Source: Escherichia phage kaset
Reading direction: 5' to 3' (one strand)
Sequence record: PV245935.1
DNA: 64,000 bases
Of the stretch, positions 1 through 62,966 are shown one piece after another. Within the stretch, counting starts at the first letter, position 1. Each line of letters begins with the position of its first letter. The notes below the pieces were generated by a model. That model was not told where the DNA came from, ran no database searches, and saw only the letters and a list, made by a program, of their open reading frames with translations. The translations under genes were made by a program, and so were the position numbers.

Positions 1-596
1 AAGGTCTGGAGGGTATTGCGGATTACTACCTGAAAGAAGGTCAGGATGTGGATTTTGACCCTCAAAAAGATTCACGGTCGGTGCAACCGTCTACCCTTCC
101 AAGCGTCAAAGGTAATGTCGTTAACTTACGACACAACGTTGGAAAGATGGACGCAGCATCGTTACCTAAGATGAAGTTGCACGGGCTGATTCTTGGGATT
201 GAGAATCCTCGCAACAGCATCCGTAGAGGGAACAGCCTTGACGGTGAATGGGCAGTCAAGATGCCGCATCACTACGGATTCATCAAGGGCACTAAGGGCG
301 CGGACGGCGATGAAGTCGACTGCTTTGTTGGTCCAAATATGAAGTCGCCGAAGGTCTTTATCGTTAACCAGAACGATAATTACTCTGGCGAGTTTGATGA
401 ACACAAGTGTATGCTTGGATTCGATTCAGCAGAAGAAGCGAAAGAAGCTTATCAAGCATCATTTGGTAACGGTTGGAATGGATTCGACTCAATCCACGAA
501 TTAGATGTGAACTCATTCAAGGAGTGGTTGAAGGGTGATTGCTCTCAAGCATACGGAGCACTCAATAATCCTACTAATTCACCGAAGCAAGGTTGA
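1..596 (+). CDS. Partial CDS (5' end outside window); C-terminal region carries an inorganic-pyrophosphatase-like signature
   Basis: Frame is open from window start into track ORF 48..596; motif YGFIKGT...DGDEVDC fits the family I pyrophosphatase pattern D-[SGDN]-D-[PE]-[LIVMF]-D as I recall it. Confidence 0.5.
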   Translation, partial: GLEGIADYYLKEGQDVDFDPQKDSRSVQPSTLPSVKGNVVNLRHNVGKMDAASLPKMKLHGLILGIENPRNSIRRGNSLDGEWAVKMPHHYGFIKGTKGADGDEVDCFVGPNMKSPKVFIVNQNDNYSGEFDEHKCMLGFDSAEEAKEAYQASFGNGWNGFDSIHELDVNSFKEWLKGDCSQAYGALNNPTNSPKQG

Positions 597-597
597 T

Positions 598-1449
598 ATG
601 GCTTTTAAAGCTTCGAAAAAACGTGAGCGCCGCTCACCCGATAGAATCGGGCGCGGCAGTCCGATAATCCCATCAAACGCTATTGCGATGGCCTACCGTC
701 GTGAGATGAAAGGTCTTTGCTATGCGATGATTGATGACTATCAGGAAGGCATTTCAGAATGGCTTGACAAGAAGCAGGTGCAGAAGTTTTTTGCGCAAGA
801 CTCTGCTGATTCGACATTCCAGACCCTTATGAAACGGCTGCAGCTGAAATGGGCAAAGGCGTTTGCACGTGTTGGGTCGAAGATTGCTGCTGATTTTGTC
901 AAATCGGTCGAAAAGGGTGCCACTTCTGCTACATTCGCCAGCCTTAAGTCCGCAGGCATAGAAGCGCCAAAGGCCACGTACAACAAATTCGTTGAGAACA
1001 CTCTTAGAACAAGCGAGACATTTAACACGACTCTAGTGACCAAGGTCGGCGAGGATATTCACAACAGAGTGTACGAAGCAGTAATGCTTTCACTGACTTC
1101 GCCCGACCCAGCCAAACAAGGCACGTCAGGCATTCAGGCGGCGCTGCGAAACGTCAAACACTTTTCTGCAAAGAGAGTCGATTTAATCGCTAAAGATCAA
1201 ACAAGTAAATTGTATTGCGTTCTAAGCGATGAAAGAATGCGCCAGAATGGAGTTGAAGAATTTGAGTGGGCGCACTCAGGAGCAGGAAAGGAGCCGCGAA
1301 TCTCTCATGAACACGTCGACGGAATGAGATTCAAACTTGATGACAAGCGTCTATGGGAAGTTGGCGGAGAATTGAAGTTCAAAAAGGGCGACATCGGTCC
1401 TCCTGGATGGGCGATACACTGCAAGTGCAGGAAAATACCAATCATTTGA
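598..1449 (+). CDS. Head morphogenesis protein, Mu F / SPP1 gp7-like
   Basis: ATG at 598 overlaps upstream stop (TGATATG); C-terminal R-x-S-H-x-H-x-DG motif (PRISHEHVDGMRF) typical of MuF-like minor head proteins. Confidence 0.7.
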   Translation: MAFKASKKRERRSPDRIGRGSPIIPSNAIAMAYRREMKGLCYAMIDDYQEGISEWLDKKQVQKFFAQDSADSTFQTLMKRLQLKWAKAFARVGSKIAADFVKSVEKGATSATFASLKSAGIEAPKATYNKFVENTLRTSETFNTTLVTKVGEDIHNRVYEAVMLSLTSPDPAKQGTSGIQAALRNVKHFSAKRVDLIAKDQTSKLYCVLSDERMRQNGVEEFEWAHSGAGKEPRISHEHVDGMRFKLDDKRLWEVGGELKFKKGDIGPPGWAIHCKCRKIPII

Positions 1450-2941: not shown

Positions 2942-4363
2942 ATGCGAATGCAAACGGCACGCGAAATTGACAAAAATGGATTCTTGACGATTGTGGGTTG
3001 TCCCATTTCGTCATTTGGCATTTTTGATTATTCTGCAGGTCAGGTTGGACTTGATGGTGATCCGAATCGCATCGTAAAAGTTTATCGCCCAGAGTCAGCG
3101 GTGAAAGACCCCGAAGCGATAGATTCATTCAAAAATATCCCTTTCATCGACAATCACGAAATGCTTTCTGGATTCGAAGGTGATGAGGATAACACGGCAC
3201 CCGAAGAGTATGGCGTTGATGGAGTTCTAACTGGCAATGTTTATTATGACAAGCCATGGATGCGCGGCGACCTTAAAGTTTTTAGCCGTCGTCTGAAGAA
3301 AGCCATCGATTCTGGAAAGGTTGACTTGTCTTTGGGCTATGACTGTGAATTCATCATACAGTCTGGAGAGTTTGACGGGCAGCCGTATGAAGTGGTACAG
3401 ACAACTCTTCGCGGCAACCACATTGCTCTCGTGGACGTTGGTCGAGTACCAGGTGCACGGGTGCTGGATGGTCGTTGCTTTGACCATCTTTGTTTGACGA
3501 CTGTAACACCATCCAACGAGGATTTAGATATGCCAAAACCGTTAAAAGGTAAAGCGCGTGATAATGCTGTTGAACAGCTGAAATCACTGATCCCTGCGCT
3601 CGAACAATTTCTGAATGAAGAGAGCACCGAAGCTGCTCATCAGGATGAAGTTGAAGTGAAAGCAGAAGAGAAGGATTCAACCGAAGAACGTGAAGAAGTG
3701 ATGGTTGATCCAGAAGTCAAAGCAGAAGCTGAAGAGACTCCAGAAGGTGAAGAGAAGTTTGAAGTTGAAACTGAATCTCACGCTGGTGGCGAGCTTCCGC
3801 AACTGATCAGCCAAATCGAAGCACTTATTGCAAAACTGAAAGGTGGCGCGGTAGGTGATGAAGAAGAAGTTGAAGCCGAAGTCAAAGACGAAGAAGAAGT
3901 TGAAGTCAAGGCTGAAGATGTATCACCTTGCGACAAAGCTGAAGATGTGGTTAGCGGCCTGCAAAACAGCAACGTAAAGGGGGCTTCGGTCGAAAAAGAT
4001 GACAAACCGACAAAAGCGGCGAAAGCGTCGCCAGGTCCAGCAAAAGGGGAACACTCAATGGCATCTGATTCAGCAGTTGCTGCTTTCTACGCTGATTCTG
4101 CTCGTAAGAATAGCCTCTACCAGCGCCTGTCTAAAGTTGTTGGTGCCTTTGATCATGCAACTATGGACTCCAAGTCCGTAGCGAAATATGGCGCTAAAAA
4201 GTTAGGCTTGAAGTGCGTTGATGGCGCTGAGTTTGACGTTGTGGATAACTATCTGCGCGGCGTTGAACACGGTCAAAAACAGCGTGTAGTCGCAAAACAA
4301 AAGGCCGCTGCGGATTCTGCAGCAACTGACGAAGCATTTGAAGCTTGGTTGAAAGGGGAATAA
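2942..4363 (+). CDS. Putative scaffolding / prohead assembly protein with acidic repeat region
   Basis: Lies immediately upstream of the capsid candidate; long E/V/K-rich acidic repeats (EEVEAEVKDEEEVEVKAED); RBS GAGGG. Confidence 0.55.
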   Translation: MRMQTAREIDKNGFLTIVGCPISSFGIFDYSAGQVGLDGDPNRIVKVYRPESAVKDPEAIDSFKNIPFIDNHEMLSGFEGDEDNTAPEEYGVDGVLTGNVYYDKPWMRGDLKVFSRRLKKAIDSGKVDLSLGYDCEFIIQSGEFDGQPYEVVQTTLRGNHIALVDVGRVPGARVLDGRCFDHLCLTTVTPSNEDLDMPKPLKGKARDNAVEQLKSLIPALEQFLNEESTEAAHQDEVEVKAEEKDSTEEREEVMVDPEVKAEAEETPEGEEKFEVETESHAGGELPQLISQIEALIAKLKGGAVGDEEEVEAEVKDEEEVEVKAEDVSPCDKAEDVVSGLQNSNVKGASVEKDDKPTKAAKASPGPAKGEHSMASDSAVAAFYADSARKNSLYQRLSKVVGAFDHATMDSKSVAKYGAKKLGLKCVDGAEFDVVDNYLRGVEHGQKQRVVAKQKAAADSAATDEAFEAWLKGE

Positions 4364-22059: not shown

Positions 22060-23847
22060 ATGCCAACACTTATTAACAGACCTTTCGCGCAAAGCGGTGA
22101 TGTATCCGTGGTGCCGGATGCAAGCCCAAGCGGTTATGTGAACTTCCAGCGCGGCTACACTCCTGACTATGCGCTTGCGCTGGAGGCCGGAAACGTCGCC
22201 GCGAAAGCTGTTGAGCGCGAATCGATGAACTGGTTGCTGAATTTGATTACAGACAACCTTATGTTTATTCAAGATCATGGCGCTCAACAATATTTCTCTT
22301 CTGACTTGAAGCCGGATGGATACCCGAAAAACGCCATTGTTGTCAGCAACTCTGGAACGCCTTCAGCACCTGAGTGGCGCATCTTTCAAAGTGTGGTTGA
22401 CGGCAACACAAGCGCAGTACCAGCTAACGGAGAAACGGAATCTTGGCAGGAATTAACACTGCCCAGCGAAGCGCGAAAATACATTCCTATGCCTGCTGGC
22501 GGCGATGCGCAAAACCCGTATTTTGTTCGCGGATTGATTTCAAGCGTTGTCGACTTTGACAATATTACGACTTCCACAACTATTGTCATCCAATCCGATG
22601 CCGTTGCCGCTCTGTGCTCTAATATTCCGAATGCTGTTGGCGCGACGAAGGTTGCAGGTCGCCTTCAGGTTTGCGCTTGGCAGGTCGATGCGCAAACGTT
22701 TGCGCTGCAACAATACACGTCAATGAACGGATATGTTTTTACCCGCTCTTATACGTCTGGTGCTTGGAGTGCTTGGATTCAAAATGCCACCGTTCAAGAT
22801 GTGCAAATTGGAACGCCGAATCTTGCATCAGGTAAAGGCGCGCAAGATATAATCCTCACCGTTCCAGCAGGGTATTCATGGCCTCCGTCAGCAGGTAGTC
22901 GTTTGACAATCGTCAATGATGTAACGACTACCGGACCTGTCACCGTGACCATTGGTGTAAACAAAGTTGCCGTTCTTGGATTCGACGGCGGCGAGCTGCC
23001 AGCTGGCGCTATCGTAGGCTTGTTGCCATTCACCATAATTTATGACGGCACTGTTTGGCGTCTCCTTCAGGCGTTTGGCGCGGCGCAAATCGGCGTTGAT
23101 GCTACTGAGCCGCAACAGTTTGTTACAAAGCGCCAACTCGATGCTTTGGCTGCGAAATTGATCACTATGGGCGACGTATTCGAAGTCGGTGAGACTCGAT
23201 TCCTCACCAACGGAACAGACCCGAATACTAAACTGGGCGCTTACGGCCAGGTATGGACACGACTTCCTGATAACATGGTCATCAGAACATCTGGCACGGC
23301 GCGAAACGGTCTTGCCACTGGCGGCGCGGACTCTGTTACTCTCACCGCTGCAATGCTTCCTCTCCACAATCACAGCGTGAACATTACCACGCGACAAAGT
23401 GGTCCATGGTCTAATACCACTGGAGATGCTGGAAATCACAACCACACAGGTGATACAAGTCAAAACGGTGCTCACGTGCATGGAATGGATACGGCAGGCA
23501 ACCATCACCATGACAGCAGCTGGGGTGAAGCCAATACTAGCGATGCGCGGTACGGCGTTTATGATGGGACACACAACAACTTCGGAAGTCGCAAAGGCGG
23601 CGACTGGGATAACTACAAATACAACACTTCGACTAACGGCAACCACGTCCATAATATTCAATCTTCTGGATCACACACCCATGGATTGAATATAAATTAC
23701 GCTGGCAATCACAGCCACAGTTATACCCTTCCCGCTCACACTCACGATGTGGTCGGTAACACTGGCAACGCAGGGCAGTCGGTGCCAACGGCTGTTGCGA
23801 CTTTGCCGCGATACGTTGTCTTGAATGGCTGGTACAGAAGCGCATAA
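22060..23847 (+). CDS. Tail fiber protein with His-rich C-terminal tip
   Basis: ATG 22060 after GAGGA RBS; C-terminal region has seven HxH motifs (NHNH, HVH, HHH, HVH, HTH, HSH, HTH) as in metal-binding fiber tips. Confidence 0.65.
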   Translation: MPTLINRPFAQSGDVSVVPDASPSGYVNFQRGYTPDYALALEAGNVAAKAVERESMNWLLNLITDNLMFIQDHGAQQYFSSDLKPDGYPKNAIVVSNSGTPSAPEWRIFQSVVDGNTSAVPANGETESWQELTLPSEARKYIPMPAGGDAQNPYFVRGLISSVVDFDNITTSTTIVIQSDAVAALCSNIPNAVGATKVAGRLQVCAWQVDAQTFALQQYTSMNGYVFTRSYTSGAWSAWIQNATVQDVQIGTPNLASGKGAQDIILTVPAGYSWPPSAGSRLTIVNDVTTTGPVTVTIGVNKVAVLGFDGGELPAGAIVGLLPFTIIYDGTVWRLLQAFGAAQIGVDATEPQQFVTKRQLDALAAKLITMGDVFEVGETRFLTNGTDPNTKLGAYGQVWTRLPDNMVIRTSGTARNGLATGGADSVTLTAAMLPLHNHSVNITTRQSGPWSNTTGDAGNHNHTGDTSQNGAHVHGMDTAGNHHHDSSWGEANTSDARYGVYDGTHNNFGSRKGGDWDNYKYNTSTNGNHVHNIQSSGSHTHGLNINYAGNHSHSYTLPAHTHDVVGNTGNAGQSVPTAVATLPRYVVLNGWYRSA

Positions 23848-52627: not shown

Positions 52628-52953
52628 AATTGAAATGGTACGTGGACCCTGAGCCAACAGGCCAATACAGGTCATTCCAACGTCGCGGCTGGCCGACTTG
52701 TTACAGCGGTAATCCCGATAAAGAAGATTGCGAGCTGCTTGCCGCTATCGTAAGCCTCGACCGTCACGGCTATGAAGGCCACTACGCGAGAGCAACCAAC
52801 CTTCGGCTTAAGGTGCGCATCCATTTCAAGGTCGCAGGCGAGGACCGCACCGGACTCTCCAAGGAAGAGTTCAGCAGCATCGCTGAAGCAAAGGCATGGC
52901 TCAAGGCGTTCTATAAGAACAACCCTAAATTCTATCCAACTAAGGATGCATAA
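52624..52953 (+). CDS. Hypothetical protein
   Basis: ATGA overlap. Confidence 0.5.
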   Translation: MKLKWYVDPEPTGQYRSFQRRGWPTCYSGNPDKEDCELLAAIVSLDRHGYEGHYARATNLRLKVRIHFKVAGEDRTGLSKEEFSSIAEAKAWLKAFYKNNPKFYPTKDA

Positions 52954-53186
52954 TGACCGATAAACAATACGCAGTCGGGCAACGTGACATCGAGCAACTC
53001 GACGAGGGCGGCTATTATACGCGCCACATCTATGCCATGACGCATGAAGGACTTTACAGCAAGTCGGACATCGCCGCTGAACTGGCCCATCGTGACTTGC
53101 AAATTGACGTGTTGCGTCTCGCGCTTGAGAAGCAAACGCAAATCGCTATTGAAATTTTGGAGAAGTTAAATGATACAACGTTATGA
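52953..53186 (+). CDS. Hypothetical small protein
   Basis: ATG overlapping upstream stop. Confidence 0.45.
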   Translation: MTDKQYAVGQRDIEQLDEGGYYTRHIYAMTHEGLYSKSDIAAELAHRDLQIDVLRLALEKQTQIAIEILEKLNDTTL

Positions 53187-53838
53187 TGTTGATTATTGCA
53201 CGCAGCACGCTTGTACATGCGAAGTTGTAAAGGATGATGAAGGCGGCTACGTTGAATATGAGGACTATGCCGCGCTGGAAGCGAAATATAGTTCTCTTAC
53301 GTACATTGACAGCGAACCGTTTGCATACATCATTCAGGACAAGTATGAAAGGGAGAAAGGATTAGATGGTCATCTCAGTCGCAGTCATGTATCCAAATAT
53401 GTTAGCCAGGAAGACATCAACGAGCATGAAATAACTTGCATCCCGCTCTATCGCCAAGCACAGTTGGCGATAGCAATAAAACCGTTGGCAAAAACCGATG
53501 ATGAGGACTACGCCGCGCTGGAAGCGAAATATGGTGAAGCGCAACGCGAGTTGGTTGCATTACGCTCACAGGTCCGTGATGCGTCGGCGCTCGTTAAGCA
53601 GTTGCACGACGTTGTTGCTACTATAGGCGTGGATGTTGATGCTTGCGAAAAGCAGGAAGAAGCGTGGACCGCGTGGTTTGGTGGAGAGAATCCGGTGCCT
53701 GGGAAGATGGTTGTGTTTGAGTTGTTAAACGGTTACAAATCAAAAGAGGCTGTGCCTTCGGATAATTTGAACTGGGGTGCAGTGGCAAGCCCTTTTGGCG
53801 AAGACATTGTTGCTTATCGGGTCGTTAAGGAGGGGTGA
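53170..53838 (+). CDS. Hypothetical protein with internal duplicated segment and shared C-terminal domain
   Basis: EDYAALEAKY occurs twice; C-terminal domain paralogous to 51777..52286. Confidence 0.5.
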   Translation: MIQRYDVDYCTQHACTCEVVKDDEGGYVEYEDYAALEAKYSSLTYIDSEPFAYIIQDKYEREKGLDGHLSRSHVSKYVSQEDINEHEITCIPLYRQAQLAIAIKPLAKTDDEDYAALEAKYGEAQRELVALRSQVRDASALVKQLHDVVATIGVDVDACEKQEEAWTAWFGGENPVPGKMVVFELLNGYKSKEAVPSDNLNWGAVASPFGEDIVAYRVVKEG

Positions 53839-54287
53839 TGAGTAAACGGCTTATCGCCGCTGGCTGGGCCATACCGAAGTGGGGCCATCGTGCGCATTAC
53901 TTTGACGAAGGAGAAGTGCAAAGCCTTTGTGGTCGCGCAACGTATTTCGGTGATGAGCGCGTCAGCGGCGATTACATCGACTCGCTTTTAGGTAAAGGTG
54001 ATTGCAAGAAGTGCCAGAATATATTAAGAGATATTCTTACGCAAAAAGGATTGCTTGAGCTTGATGAATCGGAAGAAGTGATTGAGCTTAAGCTGGAAGC
54101 AAATTACCTTATTTATACGTTCAAGAACTATTACGCAACTAATATGCGCTCAAAAATGAGCGAGGAAGTAATAGAAAAGGTGTTCACCTACAATCCGCTA
54201 AGGATGAATAAAACTAAATTGAAGAAGTTTAATATAATGTTAAGGAAAGAATTTAAAAGGCTAGGAGTGAAGAATTTTATATTTTAA
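53835..54287 (+). CDS. Hypothetical protein with Cys cluster
   Basis: CGRATYF...CKKCQ motif; last gene before terminator. Confidence 0.5.
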   Translation: MMSKRLIAAGWAIPKWGHRAHYFDEGEVQSLCGRATYFGDERVSGDYIDSLLGKGDCKKCQNILRDILTQKGLLELDESEEVIELKLEANYLIYTFKNYYATNMRSKMSEEVIEKVFTYNPLRMNKTKLKKFNIMLRKEFKRLGVKNFIF

Positions 54288-54303
54288 TAGTGATTAATGT
54301 TAA

Positions 54304-54328
54304 GAGGGCCAATCGGCCCTTTTTGTTT
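54304..54328 (+). terminator. Rho-independent terminator ending the + strand early gene block
   Basis: AGGGCCAATCGGCCCT hairpin followed by TTTTGTTTG. Confidence 0.6.
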
Positions 54329-54600
54329 GCCTGTTGTTTGTGAGTTTTTATTATCGGATAAAGCGATTGATTTGTGTAAATCTATTAGAGGATGGTGGGC
54401 CGTGAGGATTGTGACGTGAATTTTGTGTCTTGAATATGTGTTCGAATTTGGAAGAATATTGTACTGTGGTGCTGTGGGATTGGAGAGGGAATCACTAGGT
54501 TTTGGGGCGTGTACCGTGGTGTGTGGGCCTGTAGGCTGCGCCGTGTCTGGGATTGCCGCTTGAAATTAAAAAGGAGATATAGTTAGCTGGCTAACCTTAC

Positions 54601-54890
54601 GTATAGAATTTAAGCGTATAATGACGTAAGATTTGGACCTATCCGTAGTTCACTCCACACACTTCTATGGTGCGCCGCGACTGGGTTCAATGGTACATCT
54701 TACGGATGATACGGATGATACGCGTCGCCGCTATACTTTATACAACTTTGAAAAAAACAATTAACTCCATTTTGAATTAATTTAAATTAATTTTTTTCTA
54801 CATCCTCATACTTATACTAAAATTATATTTATACGTATTATCCGTAAGATATAAATAAAAACAAAGACTTGCGGCAATACGGATGATACG
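54601..54890. repeat. Iteron-like module B, homologous to 2540-2835
   Basis: Shared GCGTATAATGACGTA; inverted TACGGATGA x2 at 54689-54706; CGCTATACTTTATA; AT-rich core 54721-54850; further copies at 54826-54834 and 54864-54887. Confidence 0.7.
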
Positions 54891-55104: not shown

Positions 55105-56584
55105 AATTTGCACTATGGGATTTGCACTATGAGTCAAGATTATGTAGCAATGCCTGAAGACTTTGAAGACCCGCGATTTGCAGAGCATAATCAGGCATTA
55201 TTCGATGAGTTCATTGACCTTGTTATTCAGGGCCATGACATGCGCGCAGCTTTTGCACTAGTATTTGGCATGGAGGTTGCGACCGATAACTACACTGGCC
55301 AGCGAATCCTGTGCACGCAACGCAATCCGTACTACAAGATGCGCTACAAAAAGCGTATGGAAGAGATGCCATTGAAGGAATTGTGGAGCGTAAAGAGTTC
55401 CATCCACAATTTAGTGAAGCTTGTGCGTGATCCAGAAGTCGCGGCATCAGCCAAGCTTAATGCCATTCGTGAACTGAATATCATCTACGGCATCACGATG
55501 ATTGATGAAAACGGCAATAGTAAAATGGGCCGTTCCATGGACGATTTCTACAAGGATTTTGGAGAGGCAGCCAAAGAGGGTGAGCAATTCTCCCGCCACT
55601 AGCCAATTTGCACTATAAAACGGCCCTAGAACACATTTTCTCCACTTCTAGGGCCATCGGTAATACGACGGTGAATGCTGCAACCATAAACGCGTTAGAA
55701 AGTGTATTATTATAAGTCATCTTTTAGTCACTTTACGTAACAATTTACGACCTTCCGCCGTCCAGTCGAACGACTCCACCAGCAGATTTGCACTATAACC
55801 TAAGACGATGCGCCCTTTCTCGTTATCGACCCGCCAACAAGTCTCGAATAGCATTCGATTTGCACTATTAACTATCACCGCAACGCGCGTTGGGTAAGCG
55901 CAATTTGCACTATGGTCGTAAAGGGATAAGGTGCGACCACTTCCGATGGACAACGTAGCGATGAGAATGAGTGTGTTCATAAGCCACCAATTTGCACTAT
56001 GAAAAGCGACCCCGAAGGGCCGCCATTCGATTAGATGATCTGGAAGGTGTAGGATTTGTTGCCGAACTCAAAGTTCAAGCGCCCAGCTTCCTTAAGCTTC
56101 ATACGGAAGCGAATGTGCTTGCTATCCGGTAAGCCCAGCGCGGCGAACGCTACGCGGACCGATTTGAACTCGCCTACACCCTCGACCATAACGCCGTTGC
56201 GCGTAAGACGCTTTTGCGCTACTTCCTTGTTGTCCCAACTTTTTGCAATACCTTCGCTATTCGAACGGCGATGGGAAGGAGTTCCATTTTGCACTACGCA
56301 ATTTGCACTATCGTTTAGGCCGCTCTTAACGAAGGCTTCATACTCTTCGTCGGTCATCGCGTCGAGTTCTTCCTGGGTCGGCTCGGCCTTTTTAACGACC
56401 GCACGCGCCTTATGCGTTTTTACATCGCTGGACACTTCCTCGCGCGGCTTCGCGTCGGGGATGGGCGATTCGTTGGACGGCTCATCGAGCGCGTTTAAGG
56501 ACTCGATTAACGCGATTACGCGAGTCTCGGCGGTACGGCGGTCCGCGAACTTTTTAATCGGCTTCGAACCGGAATTTGCATTAT
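55105..56584 (+). repeat. Dispersed same-strand array of ATTTGCACTAT motifs
   Basis: Copies at 55105, 55120, 55605, 55786, 55858, 55902, 55989, 56300; variants at 56286 and 56573; related AATTTGCAGTACACT at 58462 and 58559. Confidence 0.7.
55129..55602 (+). CDS. Hypothetical protein (candidate regulator; ATTTGCACTAT motifs overlap its start)
   Basis: ATG 55129; track N-terminal extension runs through promoter region and is rejected. Confidence 0.5.
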   Translation: MSQDYVAMPEDFEDPRFAEHNQALFDEFIDLVIQGHDMRAAFALVFGMEVATDNYTGQRILCTQRNPYYKMRYKKRMEEMPLKELWSVKSSIHNLVKLVRDPEVAASAKLNAIRELNIIYGITMIDENGNSKMGRSMDDFYKDFGEAAKEGEQFSRH

Positions 56585-56657
56585 AAAATGCAACGAGGTC
56601 GGCGGTCTTAGTTGCGATAACGTCGCCGCTAGTCGAGAAGCGATTTAAGCTAACCAT
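56031..56657 (-). CDS. Hypothetical protein in CpG-rich block
   Basis: 208 aa ORF; CG-rich codon usage distinct from rest of window. Confidence 0.5.
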   Translation of the reverse strand: MVSLNRFSTSGDVIATKTADLVAFYNANSGSKPIKKFADRRTAETRVIALIESLNALDEPSNESPIPDAKPREEVSSDVKTHKARAVVKKAEPTQEELDAMTDEEYEAFVKSGLNDSANCVVQNGTPSHRRSNSEGIAKSWDNKEVAQKRLTRNGVMVEGVGEFKSVRVAFAALGLPDSKHIRFRMKLKEAGRLNFEFGNKSYTFQII

Positions 56658-60139: not shown

Positions 60140-60213
60140 CTCACTTGTTAACGTATAATGAGTATAACTTAATAGCGCATAAAGTAAAGGCGCTTTTCAG
60201 CGCCTTGAGTGAA

Positions 60214-62586
60214 TTATTTTGCTGCTTTCAGCGCGGCTATCTCTGTCTCTAAAGATTCGACCTTCTTCATCAACTCCTGTACAACGTGCATCGTATCCAA
60301 AAGCATAGGTGTTGTGTCAAGTTGTTTTTGCTCAACTTCGACACCTTCACTCGGATAGAATTTAATCGTTTTAACATACAACGGGTCAATAGTCTCTGCC
60401 TGTTGAGCGATAATTCCCCTTCTCACCCTTTCCTTTTCATCATTGTTGTAGATGAACGTTACATACTCCAGAGATGAAAGGTTGCTCCATGCTTTTTCTA
60501 CCGTTCCTGGTTGTATGTCATGCTTCAAATTCTCATCAGAGATAGCATTCTTTTGAAGAGTGAAGAAGCTGTCAGAGCCTGGAACGGATACTGAAAAGAA
60601 TACGTCCTCTACGTTAGGCTGGATTTGCATCTTTGTTTGATACTTTGCATCATCATCACCAGAAGCAATCCACGTAGCTTGCGCAAAACTTCCATTGTTG
60701 TTGTGAATCATGCCATGGTGAACAGTAGTTGCGTATCCTGTATTAACAGATTGACTACCGCTGATAAGGCTGTTGAAACCATAGTTCTGACCAAGACCCT
60801 GACGAACCATCGAGAAGGTGCCTGACTTTGATCCTGTCTCAGCCCATGACATCAATGTTCCGTAACGTGCTGCAAATCGGTCAGACCATAATAGACCGTC
60901 ATCCGTCAAGCTGATGTCTTTTTCTTTACCTGCAGTGACATTTTTTACTGATAATTGAGTTGAATATGTACCGCCAATCGTTGCTGATGTGTAAACCGTT
61001 CCTTGCGCTTCGATGGAAGTTCCAATCTTGTATTCTGCGCTTACTTTTCCTGATTCAACTCTCGTACCGTCTATCGGTCTGGTGGCGTCACCGTTGATAA
61101 CACTCCAAGACGTTTTCGCGGCAACAAATCCACCCGATGCACGAATCACCCAAACGCCTGAGAAGTTGCGAGGCAGCACTTCATCCGTTGCAAGGTTATT
61201 ACGACCGTAAGCTGGACTTGAGTTTGAAGCTCTTAGTGTGATGCTGCCCAAAGAGTTTGCACCGGAACTTAAAAGTGATACCCCACGAACATATCGCGGA
61301 ATGGTGAATCCTTCTCCATTGACGAATGCACCGCCAGCACCTGCGACAACCGTTCCTGATGCTGGCTCACTGGCAGGGCCGGACCCGTGGAAGTTGATGT
61401 TGCCAGTAATGTTTGGTAGGAAGGATTCCATTATCATTCCGTCATTTGACGAGTTTCCGCCATCGCCACGGGCAAAAAGTGCACGAACACTTCCCGTTTG
61501 AACGCCGTTCCTGTCCGGTACGCGGAATGTTGTTGTGCCGTTGCCCAATGAATACTTGCCGCGCTTCAATGGGTCTGCAAGCCAGTCAGCGTCAGCAATA
61601 GGTGAAAGCATTTGCGCATACGCCCAAAGCTCAGGCCAGTCCGCACGGTTTAACAGTTGTCCATCGGCAACGACTTCATAAGGTTGAATATAAGCACGAC
61701 TATCACGTAAGTGGAAATCACCTACACCATAGTTCATGACTCCATTCATGCTTGGGCCAACGGTGCCTGTGTTTATCAAGTTCTCGACCCAACGCTTGGT
61801 AGTTGCATCATAATCGTTAACGGGGTCGCCTGCAAGTGGCGTTGATCCTTGAGGGCGTATGTTCAGCCATGCTTGCGCATTATCCCCTGAGCCTGTTCCG
61901 CCCATGGAAGTTGGAACAATGTTTTGATCAGCAACTTGACCAAATCCAAAAGCAGTCTTCATGCCTTGAATGGTGGTTTGACCCGTTCCACCGTTTGACA
62001 CTGGCACTATTCCGCCTGAGTTGAATTCACTGTACCAAGGTGACCATTCAACTCCATTATATGTCCTTCTGTATTCAGTTTTTGAACTGTATGGGTGATA
62101 CTTCTGAATACAATCACTTGCTGAATTGGCTGGAACTTGGAACACTTCAAGAACACCAGCTTGCTGAATGGGATAATTAAGCACTGGAGATGCTTGAGAA
62201 TCACTTCTTTGATAGTACTGACCGAACCAAGGACCAGTAAGCGCATCAAGATTAATTCCTGAAGGGATTGGACCGAAATTCCTGATTGTTCCTGCCAAAA
62301 GCGCGGCAGTGGTTCGAATGGAAAGAAGGTCACCAGCCGCCCATGCACGTGCCGCAGTCCCTTCCTGTGCACGCTGCACGGTTAGTACGTTGCCAACAAC
62401 GGCTGTTACTGTGACGATTTCGAATTGGAGGCCTGTTGCAGCGTCGACGATTGTCGCCACTACTTGCTCGTTTGCAGCCAAGGTCGGAAAGCCCGACCCT
62501 GAGCGGATTGTAATTGTGGTGTCTGAAGTCGTCGTTGGTTGAGCCAGCGCGACCTCAAAGTTGTTTTTGAATATTAGCCTTGGCAT
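60214..62586 (-). CDS. Tail fiber/tailspike protein with C-terminal intramolecular chaperone-like (S74-type) domain
   Basis: 790 aa; GAGGA RBS; SDENLK motif (Ser-Lys spacing as in self-cleaving fiber chaperone domains) about 108 aa from C-terminus, then coiled-coil tail. Confidence 0.6.
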   Translation of the reverse strand: MPRLIFKNNFEVALAQPTTTSDTTITIRSGSGFPTLAANEQVVATIVDAATGLQFEIVTVTAVVGNVLTVQRAQEGTAARAWAAGDLLSIRTTAALLAGTIRNFGPIPSGINLDALTGPWFGQYYQRSDSQASPVLNYPIQQAGVLEVFQVPANSASDCIQKYHPYSSKTEYRRTYNGVEWSPWYSEFNSGGIVPVSNGGTGQTTIQGMKTAFGFGQVADQNIVPTSMGGTGSGDNAQAWLNIRPQGSTPLAGDPVNDYDATTKRWVENLINTGTVGPSMNGVMNYGVGDFHLRDSRAYIQPYEVVADGQLLNRADWPELWAYAQMLSPIADADWLADPLKRGKYSLGNGTTTFRVPDRNGVQTGSVRALFARGDGGNSSNDGMIMESFLPNITGNINFHGSGPASEPASGTVVAGAGGAFVNGEGFTIPRYVRGVSLLSSGANSLGSITLRASNSSPAYGRNNLATDEVLPRNFSGVWVIRASGGFVAAKTSWSVINGDATRPIDGTRVESGKVSAEYKIGTSIEAQGTVYTSATIGGTYSTQLSVKNVTAGKEKDISLTDDGLLWSDRFAARYGTLMSWAETGSKSGTFSMVRQGLGQNYGFNSLISGSQSVNTGYATTVHHGMIHNNNGSFAQATWIASGDDDAKYQTKMQIQPNVEDVFFSVSVPGSDSFFTLQKNAISDENLKHDIQPGTVEKAWSNLSSLEYVTFIYNNDEKERVRRGIIAQQAETIDPLYVKTIKFYPSEGVEVEQKQLDTTPMLLDTMHVVQELMKKVESLETEIAALKAAK

Positions 62587-62624
62587 TTTACGGTCCTCGT
62601 TTTGTCGACAACCGTATTATAACC

Positions 62625-62966
62625 TTAATTTCTTTTGAGAGGAATATGACGGTTACTGTCATTATTTGGTTTAATAATGAGCATAAAAACGATTAGAAAG
62701 ATGATGGCTGATATACTTAATTCAATCAGCGCGGCCTGAGATATGGATTGATCTTCATGATATTGCTTTTGCATTTCCGCTTTCTTCTGAGCGCAAACTT
62801 CAGGTGATATATAATCGCCTTTTGAGTTGCCATAATAAATCTCGCCATTCTCAGAAATAAGTCTGCCGCAAATATCCGTATCGGCCTTTGCGCTTGACAT
62901 CATAATAACGGTGCCGATGATAGCAGCGATTGTCCAGATTAGCAGTTGTGATAAAGTGTTGTTCAT
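62625..62966 (-). CDS. Membrane protein, hypothetical
   Basis: N-terminal and C-terminal hydrophobic segments (LLIWTIAAIIGTVIMM; AIIFLIVFMLII). Confidence 0.5.
   Translation of the reverse strand: MNNTLSQLLIWTIAAIIGTVIMMSSAKADTDICGRLISENGEIYYGNSKGDYISPEVCAQKKAEMQKQYHEDQSISQAALIELSISAIIFLIVFMLIIKPNNDSNRHIPLKRN

Follow-up and report, generated by a model that had tools for sequence, protein, structure and literature searches.

A probable T-shaped lateral tail fibre with an S74-type chaperone and exchangeable receptor-binding modules in Escherichia phage kaset

Escherichia phage kaset (PV245935.1) is a Wifcevirus-like E. coli myovirus with a genome of about 68 kb, of which about 64 kb form the window, the stretch of 64,000 nucleotides analysed here. 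The window is collinear with phage Bas100 at 83-97% DNA identity, starts at the equivalent of Bas100 position 4027 within the annotated minor head protein gene and ends just before terL. A first-pass annotation had singled out a 790-aa minus-strand reading frame as a second fibre or tailspike gene with a self-cleaving C-terminus, and this ATG-started frame is confirmed; a full-length match to PHROG 6921, a tail fibre family (E 7e-193; Table 1), bears out its identity as a fibre. The gene has its own ribosome-binding site, as had been noted, and its stop codon is followed by a hairpin with an 8-bp stem containing 5 G-C pairs, then TACTTTATGC. Phage genes generally have a ribosome-binding site of their own, and its presence is uninformative on acquisition, of which it had been taken as a sign. 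Pfam scans of ten small neighbouring ORFs and of seven ORFs of the 52.6-57 kb region returned no match, so that the flanks give no functional context. The tail and baseplate genes extend to about 23.8 kb, and the separation of about 36 kb between them and the fibre gene holds within the window, but is partly an effect of where the window is cut. In the complete genome the fibre gene starts about 1.5-1.7 kb upstream of terL and the two are divergently transcribed.

The fibre is rightly called the second of the phage, since the tail module contains a genus-conserved fibre of 595 aa which also matches tail fibre and collar families and carries eight HxH motifs at residues 436-562. Such motifs are likewise described for Bas99 Gp32 (PMC11990801). 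Pfam detects no S74 domain in the 595-aa fibre, an NCBIfam scan of both fibres gave no match, and tblastn of the window revealed no further S74 domain and no second anchor.

Table 1. Features of the fibre locus and of the tail-module fibre in the window (one-based positions).
Feature	Position	Strand	Remarks
Fibre gene, complete	60214..62586	-	ATG-start ORF, 790 aa; probable T-shaped lateral tail fibre
Ribosome-binding site GAGGA (Shine-Dalgarno)	62594..62598	-	7 nt before the fibre ATG; read from the sequence
N-terminal anchor, residues 1-100	62287..62586	-	Genus-conserved virion-attachment module; single allele
Pyocin-knob-like domain, residues ~103-195	62002..62280	-	Hypervariable; matches to pyocin fibres
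Conserved shaft and scaffold of Gp12-like RBD1, residues 198-380	61447..61995	-	89-100% identity across orthologues
Variable part of RBD1, residues 381-470	61177..61446	-	25 alleles, mean pairwise identity 31%
Distal RBD2, residues 501-682	60541..61086	-	17 alleles, mean pairwise identity 25%
Intramolecular chaperone, Peptidase_S74, residues 683-790	60217..60540	-	PF13884; ends in coiled-coil helix 758-789
Ser683 codon	60538..60540	-	Predicted nucleophile and cleavage residue; invariant in 36 orthologues
Lys688 codon	60523..60525	-	Predicted general base of the Ser-Lys dyad; invariant in 36 orthologues
Terminator-like hairpin	60187..60206	-	Immediately 3' of the fibre stop codon; consensus scan, pattern match only
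Other tail fibre, 595 aa	22060..23847	+	Tail module; genus-conserved; PHROG 5717 tail protein, E 4e-175

The protein reads from its N-terminus as an anchor, a knob, two receptor-binding domains (RBD1 and RBD2) and a chaperone. The anchor is 91-99% identical to that of all 35 orthologues and matches the N-terminus (residues 4-98) of the tail fibre chain 8jov_1, with E 2e-6 from the sequence alone and 2e-16 when a profile is used. This chain is taken to belong to a Ralstonia phage GP4-type podovirus, in line with a tblastn match to Ralstonia phage GP4. In the literature the anchor is termed the baseplate-attachment domain (PMC11990801). The knob matches the R2/R1 pyocin fibre structures 6ct8, 6cl6 and 6cl5 by sequence and 6ct8 and 6cl6 in Foldseek. 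It occurs as 27 alleles among 36 orthologues (mean pairwise identity 45% over residues 136-197), and the best match in an isolate reaches only 58%. The Gp12-like RBD1 is assigned by sequence to the middle of the protein, where it takes up residues ~198-500 including the shaft; from residue 233 onward there is high similarity to residues 540-~700 of DT57C LtfA, to IrisVonRoten Gp24 and to EP335 gp13, and a weak Pfam Collar match at residues 344-361 (E 0.04) lies under the threshold. A blastn comparison with Bas100 gave no match across 60884-61492. The distal RBD2 corresponds to the "T5-like" tip, and a T5-like fold has been described for this part of the fibre (PMC11990801). An AlphaFold2 monomer model of the full-length protein, built on an alignment of 36 sequences, has a mean pLDDT of 47.5 and is confident only in the knob (69-88), residues 500-565 and the chaperone; the anchor is poorly modelled (pLDDT ~28) and residues 570-682 stay below 50. 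The two-RBD, T-shaped trimer with a T5-like RBD2 is thus the literature's picture of the Wifcevirus fibre (PMC11990801), carried over to kaset by analogy.

This "T-shaped" lateral tail fibre of wifceviruses was published in 2025 in the BASEL collection paper (PMC11990801). Its closest described counterpart here is the fibre of Bas99 (ManiWeber), called Gp114 in that paper and carrying the locus tag Bas99_0109 in PQ850618, which occupies the same locus and strand and shows the same order of anchor, knob, Gp12-like RBD1, RBD2 and chaperone. At 777 aa it is 61% identical to the kaset fibre over the full length; the N-terminal 100 aa agree at ~95%, whereas the alleles of the knob (58%), RBD1 (~40%), RBD2 (~18%) and chaperone (71%) differ. 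The published T-shaped reference, Gp24 of the Tequintavirus IrisVonRoten (Bas32), aligns end-to-end with kaset residues 235-787 at 57% identity, and residues 540-1073 of DT57C LtfA match kaset residues 233-787 (E 1e-135). Gp24 and fibres of the DT57C LtfA/LtfB type share the order of RBD1, RBD2 and chaperone with the kaset fibre. Siphoviruses, however, carry this module either as a protein of its own that hangs on a proximal fibre or at the distal end of a longer LtfA, whereas in kaset it is fused to an anchor and knob (residues 1-230) for direct attachment to the baseplate of a contractile tail. The PDB entry for DT57C LtfA was considered as structural evidence and rejected: 8HQZ models only the N-terminus of LtfA and leaves the matching region unmodelled, so that the match is to sequence only.

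Among podoviruses, the Gordonclarkvirinae lateral fibre EP335 gp13 is 39% identical over kaset residues 254-790 (E 7e-99). This non-enzymatic fibre, whose centre resembles T4 gp12 and which ends in a chaperone, recognises O-antigen and binds O157 and O26 cells. It differs in the phage morphotype, in its N-terminal part, in its attachment via the proximal fibre gp12, and in its RBD2 and chaperone alleles, which are divergent from those of kaset. The chaperones of the T5 pb1 and endoNF type are likewise C-terminal domains of about 110-130 residues that start with a Ser-x4-Lys motif and combine an alpha/beta part with a trimeric coiled coil; for kaset, the auto-release known from these is predicted. 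Outside the chaperone there is no detectable sequence similarity between the kaset fibre and pb1 or endoNF, and the kaset chaperone has a fibre with two RBDs as its cargo, against a single bullet-shaped tip in pb1 and a sialidase in endoNF.

The C-terminal domain was recognised in the first-pass annotation from an SDENLK motif about 108 aa from the C-terminus, with its Ser and Lys spaced as in autoproteolytic chaperones. The motif covers residues 683-688 (nt 60523-60540), exactly 108 residues separate the start of Ser683 from the C-terminal end, and a profile search finds Peptidase_S74 (PF13884; E 2.4e-10, 41 bits against a cutoff of 22) over residues 683-737, on profile positions 1-56 of 58, so that the match begins exactly at Ser683, the first residue of the motif. 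A bare SD...K pattern is present twice in the fibre, the other copy being at residue 157, and at least once in 11% of shuffled sequences. The motif alone is therefore within chance, and its credibility derives from the S74 match, the predicted fold and the invariance of Ser683 and Lys688, which are kept in 36 orthologues although the identity of the chaperone drops to ~30%. Precomputed PF13884 assignments are present on nearly all orthologues. The dyad aligns with S959/K964 of DT57C LtfA and with SDERLK of 8jov_1, and Ser683 aligns with Ser621 of EP335 gp13 and corresponds by motif to Ser1264 of T5 pb1, the spacing of five residues to the lysine being equal to that of Ser1264/Lys1269. The AlphaFold2 model of residues 690-790 (pLDDT ~80-90) consists of an alpha/beta part and the long helix 758-789, and its best PDB matches in Foldseek are to the ICA domain of MyRF (7dc3; E 4e-5, probability 1.0, TMt 0.55-0.58) and to the endoNF chaperone (3gw6; probability 0.97-0.99). 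A profile search with the chaperone returns 7dc3 (5e-10), 6f45 (6e-6) and 3gud (0.19). From alignments and model, the fibre is assigned a genuine S74-type C-terminal intramolecular chaperone with a Ser/Lys dyad.

In T5 pb1, Arg1250 of the neighbouring subunit and the upstream Asp1239 form the oxyanion hole, which acts as a folding sensor. No counterpart of the Arg "folding sensor" of T5 and endoNF was located in the kaset sequence upstream of Ser683, and there is no Arg among the 30 residues preceding the serine. In the majority consensus of 36 sequences, four residues of this stretch, Gly670, Asp672, Thr676 and Lys679, are the same as in kaset. The residue directly before the serine is Ile in the kaset fibre and in the orthologue of phage vB_Eco4M-7 and Thr in T5 pb1, EP335 gp13 and ECML-117.

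By analogy with characterised homologues, the fibre is predicted to cleave itself at Ser683 and to release the chaperone after the trimer has folded, which would convert a precursor of 84.7 kDa (calculated) into a mature fibre of ~72.4 kDa and a chaperone of ~12.4 kDa. Cleavage of T5 pb1 relies on Ser1264/Lys1269, and EP335 gp13 is cleaved at Ser621 and loses its chaperone in vitro, as seen by intact mass (ESI-LC-MS). Published proteomics of relatives bears on the same point. In CsCl-purified ECML-117 the 18 peptides recovered from the orthologue all map to the part before the serine, and none of the seven predicted tryptic peptides of the chaperone domain was recovered. In a preparation of vB_Eco4M-7 the orthologue is a major component (34 peptides, 80% coverage), and peptides of its chaperone domain are abundant in the CsCl-purified material (500 of 2013 PSMs), from which it follows that the chaperone is not always absent from purified preparations.

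It is unlikely, on balance, that the S74 domain serves folding and is then never released, so that it would cap the distal end of the mature fibre for good, whether left uncut or bound in place after the cut. All six long tryptic chaperone peptides are found in the CsCl-gradient material of vB_Eco4M-7 with peak areas similar to those of peptides from the mature part, and it is this orthologue that shares with kaset the Ile before the serine. However, a DNA helicase and a glyoxalase-family protein were identified in the preparation and the maturation protease has the second-highest score, so the material does not represent pure mature virions; as it includes non-virion proteins, its chaperone peptides are not decisive. 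No peptide spanning the junction (SISDER, SISDERIK, CQEWRSISDER) was reported from it, though the tables include peptides of six residues. The chaperone of ECML-117 is near-identical and left no peptide, that of EP335 gp13 is also near-identical and is lost in vitro, and uncleaved T5 pb1 does not competitively inhibit infection. On cleavage, the published virion proteomics is no more than suggestive, as ECML-117 and vB_Eco4M-7 give opposite results for the chaperone and non-virion proteins are present in the preparations.

Orthologous fibres are found at the same position in Bas98-101, WFH, WFC, ECML-117, TH35 and others, and Bas98-101, WFH and ECML-117 agree in where the gene lies with respect to terL and its neighbours. 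The contigs that carry orthologues are ~68 kb long. Judged by identities per segment across the orthologue set, alleles of RBD1 and of RBD2 plus chaperone reassort independently. The closest sequenced isolate is TH35 (81.8% overall), which is 96% identical to kaset over the C-terminal 290 aa, where Bas98/100/101 reach 74-75% and T5-like phages 52-64%. RBD2 has only 15-22% identity to most other Wifcevirus fibres, and RBD2 together with the chaperone is closer to T5-like siphovirus fibres (52-64%) than to those. Within the orthologue set, the RBD1 allele (residues 381-500) is common at 90-98% only to the proteins P0001, P0002, P0046, P0047 and P0049, and the RBD2 allele at 95-97% to P0001 and the TH35-like proteins P0004, P0009 and P0016, and the combination of the two in kaset is seen elsewhere only in P0001, a metagenomic protein (98%). 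The exchanged units thus appear to be internal modules that cross phage morphotypes, with the locus and the anchor conserved in the genus.

It is very improbable that this phage gained the entire gene recently and on its own, in the manner of a moron-like host-range cassette. Such an origin would fit a gene that lies outside the tail module among small genes of unassigned function, with its own ribosome-binding site and terminator-like hairpin, and it would also fit Pbunavirus SPM-1, which has no large gene between its homologue of window positions 56031-56657 and terL, and Pantoea phage Kyle, where a comparable position is taken by an unrelated gene resembling EPS depolymerases. Yet the locus is kept in every Wifcevirus relative examined, as are its flanks, at 85-92% DNA identity, and the first 100 residues, at 91-99%; the imports of recent date are internal cassettes only, and at 47.3% GC the fibre gene differs little from the window (46.2%). 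As locus, flanks and anchor are conserved across relatives, any acquisition would predate the genus, and a gain of the whole gene would be plausible for the lineage only. On the comparison of the locus among relatives, the proposed independent acquisition is only partly right: it is unsupported for the gene and its anchor, which are genus-wide, and the RBD modules are what reassorts. The Kyle gene was also considered as a homologue at an analogous position and rejected, as it is not homologous and shares no detectable flanking gene; a "shared RBP slot" would accordingly be positional only.

The term tailspike in the first-pass annotation finds no support, and it is extremely improbable that the gene encodes an enzymatic tailspike (endosialidase or depolymerase): the vB_EcoM_SP13 orthologue (OP352608) is annotated as endo-N-acetylneuraminidase and the family description of PF13884 reads "Chaperone of endosialidase", but searches of Pfam, PHROGs, PDB sequences and Foldseek detect no sialidase, beta-propeller, beta-helix or pectate-lyase-type domain, the part upstream of the chaperone is homologous to the non-enzymatic fibres DT57C LtfA, IrisVonRoten Gp24 and EP335 gp13 and to the pyocin knob, and the SP13 label is most simply explained as a carry-over from the name of the chaperone domain.

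The gene is thus very probably the "T-shaped" lateral tail fibre of a Wifcevirus-like E. coli myovirus, a reading that takes its layout from homology, its mechanism from characterised homologues and its variability from cassette exchange. It is proposed that three chains would trimerise from the C-terminus, with the coiled coil and alpha/beta part of the chaperone serving as a template for folding of the interdigitated distal fibre. In the correctly folded trimer, Ser683 activated by Lys688 would cut the chain at Ser683, the scissile bond lying before the serine by the precedent of T5 pb1 and after it by that of EP335 gp13, and the products would be a mature fibre of ~72 kDa and a chaperone fragment of ~12 kDa. 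The mature trimer would then dock on the baseplate via its N-terminal anchor, and RBD1 and/or RBD2 would bind surface glycans, most likely O-antigen. Homologous fibres recognise O-antigen (PMC11990801, PMC8217332) and Bas98-101 depend fully on the O16 O-antigen (PMC11990801), from which it follows by inference that the kaset fibre is a host-range determinant, as had been suggested at the outset. RBD1 of the kaset fibre is only 39-42% identical to that of sampled orthologues with an overall identity of 73-74%, which is the level of the O16-dependent BASEL isolates. Host range would shift by swapping of the RBD1 and RBD2-plus-chaperone cassettes within the fixed locus, and the exchange partners would include T5-like siphoviruses and Gordonclarkvirinae podoviruses.

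Two further ideas are tentative and, at present, rather doubtful. The knob may contact the host as a third module that evolves on its own, and each chain would then carry three specificity determinants, not two; among the sampled orthologues its alleles outnumber those of RBD2 and are no fewer than those of RBD1. Separately, the chaperone fragment may stay associated with the virion in some alleles, namely those that have Ile before the serine, at which the vB_Eco4M-7 proteomics hints.

The kaset fibre is a new allele combination of a published fibre type; the fibre type, the chaperone and the horizontal exchange were all described in 2025, and no new question is opened. NCBI names the orthologues "pyocin knob domain-containing S74 family peptidase", and the kaset gene can confidently be labelled as the fibre by which a Wifcevirus-type phage binds its receptor, variable in sequence and predicted to be processed at Ser683. 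Natural recombination boundaries are marked by the conserved residues ~200-380 and 471-500 and by the serine junction, and these could guide RBD swaps between myo-, sipho- and podoviruses.

The 790-aa protein of Escherichia phage kaset belongs to a published fibre type and represents a new combination of its alleles. Its ORF begins with ATG and, as the first-pass annotation had stated, possesses its own RBS (GAGGA, 7 nt 5' of the start codon). The product matches the tail fibre family PHROG 6921 over its full length (E 7e-193) and has hundreds of orthologues, nearly all on ~68-kb contigs, some of which already bear the NCBI name "pyocin knob domain-containing S74 family peptidase". In the BASEL expansion paper this family is the Wifcevirus "T-shaped" tail fibre, composed of an N-terminal anchor, a Gp12-like RBD1, a T5-like RBD2 and a C-terminal intramolecular chaperone (PMC11990801). 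The orthologue of Bas99 (GenBank locus tag Bas99_0109, Gp114 in PMC11990801) occupies the same locus and is 61% identical over its full length, and IrisVonRoten Gp24, the structural reference of that paper, matches residues 235-787 end to end with 57% identity. For the anchor there are matches in the N-terminus of 8jov_1, a fibre chain, and in fibres from phages of Ralstonia, Burkholderia, Yersinia and Klebsiella; the strong PDB match to DT57C LtfA is one of sequence only, LtfA being modelled just at its N-terminus in 8HQZ. A second conserved Wifcevirus fibre with a HxH-rich tip is described from the tail module (PMC11990801), and its presence in the window bears out the earlier designation of the kaset protein as one of two fibres. 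The eight HxH motifs of this tail-module protein (residues 436-562) fit a metal-coordinating, T4 gp37-like needle tip; the protein has no S74 domain and no evident chaperone, whether as a separate gene or as a domain. The alternative label "tailspike" is wrong or unsupported for the kaset protein. An orthologue in vB_EcoM_SP13 (OP352608.1) is annotated "endo-N-acetylneuraminidase", most likely a mis-annotation derived from how the S74 chaperone domain is named.

Features of the kaset fibre, its gene and other regions of the window
Feature	Residues	Window position (nt)	Strand	Remarks
Fibre gene	1-790	60214-62586	-	790-aa ORF
Anchor	1-100		-	single allele; identity 91-99% to every orthologue
Pyocin-knob-like domain	~103-195	62002-62280	-	R1/R2 pyocin fibre matches in sequence and fold; pLDDT 69-88
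Conserved scaffold	198-380 and 471-500		-	high conservation across orthologues
RBD1 variable part	381-470		-	mean pairwise identity 31%
RBD2	501-682		-	mean pairwise identity 25%
Chaperone	683-790		-	AF2 pLDDT ~80-90; terminal helix 758-789
SDENLK motif	683-688	60523-60540	-	
Terminator-like hairpin		60187-60206		directly 3' of fibre stop codon
Gene directly upstream of fibre		62625-62966	-	113-aa product
Conserved tail-module fibre		22060-23847	+	595 aa, PHROG 5717
Accessory region		52628-54673	+	~2 kb; ORFs of 109, 77, 222 and 150 aa
Putative terminal repeat copy		~54769 to ~58450		

By megablast and tblastn the window belongs to the Wifcevirus group, E. coli myoviruses of ~68 kb. It is collinear with HansTraber (Bas100) from Bas100 position 4027 to 68453 and therefore lacks only ~4 kb, namely terL, the beginning of the annotated minor head protein gene and two small genes. 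Terminal repeats of ~3.7 kb are present in WFC and WFH (PMC6563267); position 1 of WFH corresponds to window 54769 (97% identity), and the physical genome end and one repeat copy probably lie inside the window. With the same ends as WFH and WFC, the fibre gene would be situated just past the repeat, at a distance of ~5.4 kb from the physical left end, and its start would lie ~1.5-1.7 kb upstream of terL, the two genes being divergently transcribed. The distance of ~36 kb from the tail module holds inside the window, where baseplate and fibre genes stop at ~23.8 kb; in the other direction the fibre gene adjoins the packaging/head block, with the sheath gene ~14 kb and the second, tail-module fibre ~28 kb away. 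Gene orientation switches from + to - near 55.7 kb, less than ~1 kb downstream of the putative left end, and the GC content falls to 0.41 between 54 and 56 kb. The region just before this putative end, which matches Bas100 DNA over only 154 nt (52955-53108) and whose four ORFs have no Pfam matches, is on sequence comparison a variable accessory region. Immediately upstream of the fibre gene lies one whose product has hydrophobic N- and C-terminal segments and no Pfam match and is probably membrane-bound or secreted; Bas100 and Bas99 have an equally sized gene in the corresponding place, and the WFH annotation lacks it.

The first-pass annotation had singled out the SDENLK motif, with Ser and Lys spaced as in autoproteolytic chaperones, about 108 aa from the C-terminus, which is exact when counted from Ser683. 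The bare SD...K pattern is uninformative, with two copies in the fibre and at least one copy in 11% of composition-preserving shuffles. The motif is significant because Ser683 is the first residue of a Pfam Peptidase_S74 match (41 bits, E 2.4e-10; gathering cutoff 22 bits), because Ser683 and Lys688 are invariant in an alignment of 36 orthologues in which identity of the surrounding domain falls to ~30%, and because the predicted fold is in line with chaperone domains of known structure. In Foldseek the chaperone model has its best PDB matches with the ICA domain of MyRF (E 4e-5, prob 1.0) and with 3GW6, the intramolecular chaperone of an endosialidase (prob 0.99); the profile of the 36 orthologues matches the chaperone-type chains 7dc3 (5e-10) and 6f45 of the phage S16 fibre (6e-6), with 0.19 for the GA-1 appendage chain 3gud. 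The chaperone reading was thus right, the C-terminus being an S74 domain with Ser683 and Lys688. In T5 pb1, Lys1269 activates Ser1264 and the Thr1263-Ser1264 bond is cut only after correct trimer folding, a cleavage that is blocked by S1264A (PMC4690869). The non-enzymatic fibre gp13 of podovirus EP335, which binds to cells of O157 and O26, loses 11.8 kDa through cleavage at Ser621 according to ESI-LC-MS (PMC8217332); residues 254-790 of the kaset protein are homologous to it (E 7e-99, 39% identity), and Ser683 is aligned with Ser621 of gp13. By analogy, the C-terminal domain would template trimer folding of the kaset fibre, which would then cut itself at Ser683 into predicted products of ~72.4 kDa (mature fibre) and ~12.4 kDa.

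Published mass spectrometry covers two orthologues, both from CsCl-gradient material (PMC7048862). All 18 of 18 peptides (109 PSMs) of the ECML-117 fibre PI34_24 (PI34_gp24, L007:301-2658 in the record carrying its gene) are N-terminal of the serine and none of the seven predicted tryptic peptides of the chaperone domain is present in the published data (PMC7048862), a pattern that fits chaperone removal. The fibre of vB_Eco4M-7 (vB_Eco4M-7_27, orthologue P0120) is the top-scoring protein of its preparation with 34 peptides and 80% coverage, and 6 of 6 long chaperone-domain peptides were recovered, accounting for 500 of 2013 PSMs (PMC7048862). This preparation does not consist of pure mature virions, since a helicase, a glyoxalase-family protein and maturation protease, the last in abundance, were detected in it as well (PMC7048862). 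No junction-spanning peptide occurs in either data set, though the tables report peptides of six residues. Both sets are compatible with the proposed cleavage, after which the fragment may or may not stay bound. The residue before the serine is Ile in vB_Eco4M-7 and the kaset protein and Thr in ECML-117, EP335 and T5. vB_Eco4M-7 and ECML-117 have near-identical chaperone alleles and opposite chaperone-peptide pictures; the Ile/Thr difference alongside the differing recovery is a lead, not a result.

Sequence identities to the kaset protein, calculated per segment (RBD1 residues 381-500, RBD2 501-682, chaperone 683-790), show cassette shuffling among the orthologues: in this order they are 94%, 63% and 95% for orthologue P0002, 47%, 97% and 98% for P0004, and 96%, 20% and 30% for P0047. 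Among the sampled orthologues, only P0001 (98% overall) has the full allele combination in common with kaset. Over the C-terminal 290 aa, identity is 96% to TH35, 74-75% to Bas98/100/101, 52-64% to T5-like siphoviruses and ~52% to phages with 74-77 kb genomes, presumed Gordonclarkvirinae-type podoviruses; within this stretch the kaset RBD2 is only 15-22% identical to that of most other Wifcevirus fibres. These comparisons indicate that the fibre locus and anchor are inherited vertically within Wifcevirus and that receptor-binding cassettes are imported across morphotypes, the latter being also the conclusion of the BASEL authors (PMC11990801). Independent acquisition of the gene by kaset itself, as had been suggested, is wrong or unsupported. 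In Pbunavirus SPM-1 (terL 64% identical) the 7 kb upstream of terL hold small genes only and a homologue of window 56031-56657 is retained. Pantoea phage Kyle (terL 75% identical) has an unrelated EPS-depolymerase-like gene in a positionally similar place, with no flanking genes detectable in common with the kaset locus. It is therefore plausible that the whole fibre gene was acquired by the Wifcevirus lineage. The Kyle gene product KYLE_15 (L009:3601-5436 in the Kyle record) is listed as a "hypothetical protein" of 611 aa and is encoded upstream of terL, within the - strand cluster; it matches the EPS depolymerase family PHROG 4250 (E 1.6e-149) and is probably an unannotated tailspike, analogous in position to the Wifcevirus fibre.

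The knob keeps a conserved Trp/Tyr/Gly/Cys core, and no sequenced phage has a knob more than 58% identical to the kaset allele. The knob core (residues 136-197) occurs in 27 alleles among the 36 sequences with a mean pairwise identity of 45%, and RBD1 and RBD2 have 25 and 17 alleles in the same sequences; the sample was picked for diversity, which biases the absolute counts and leaves the comparison between segments valid. The knob is as diverse as RBD1 and exceeds RBD2 in allele number. PMC11990801 describes two RBDs and a conserved N-terminus, and the hypervariability of the knob goes beyond this two-RBD description, as far as the excerpted text of that paper extends.
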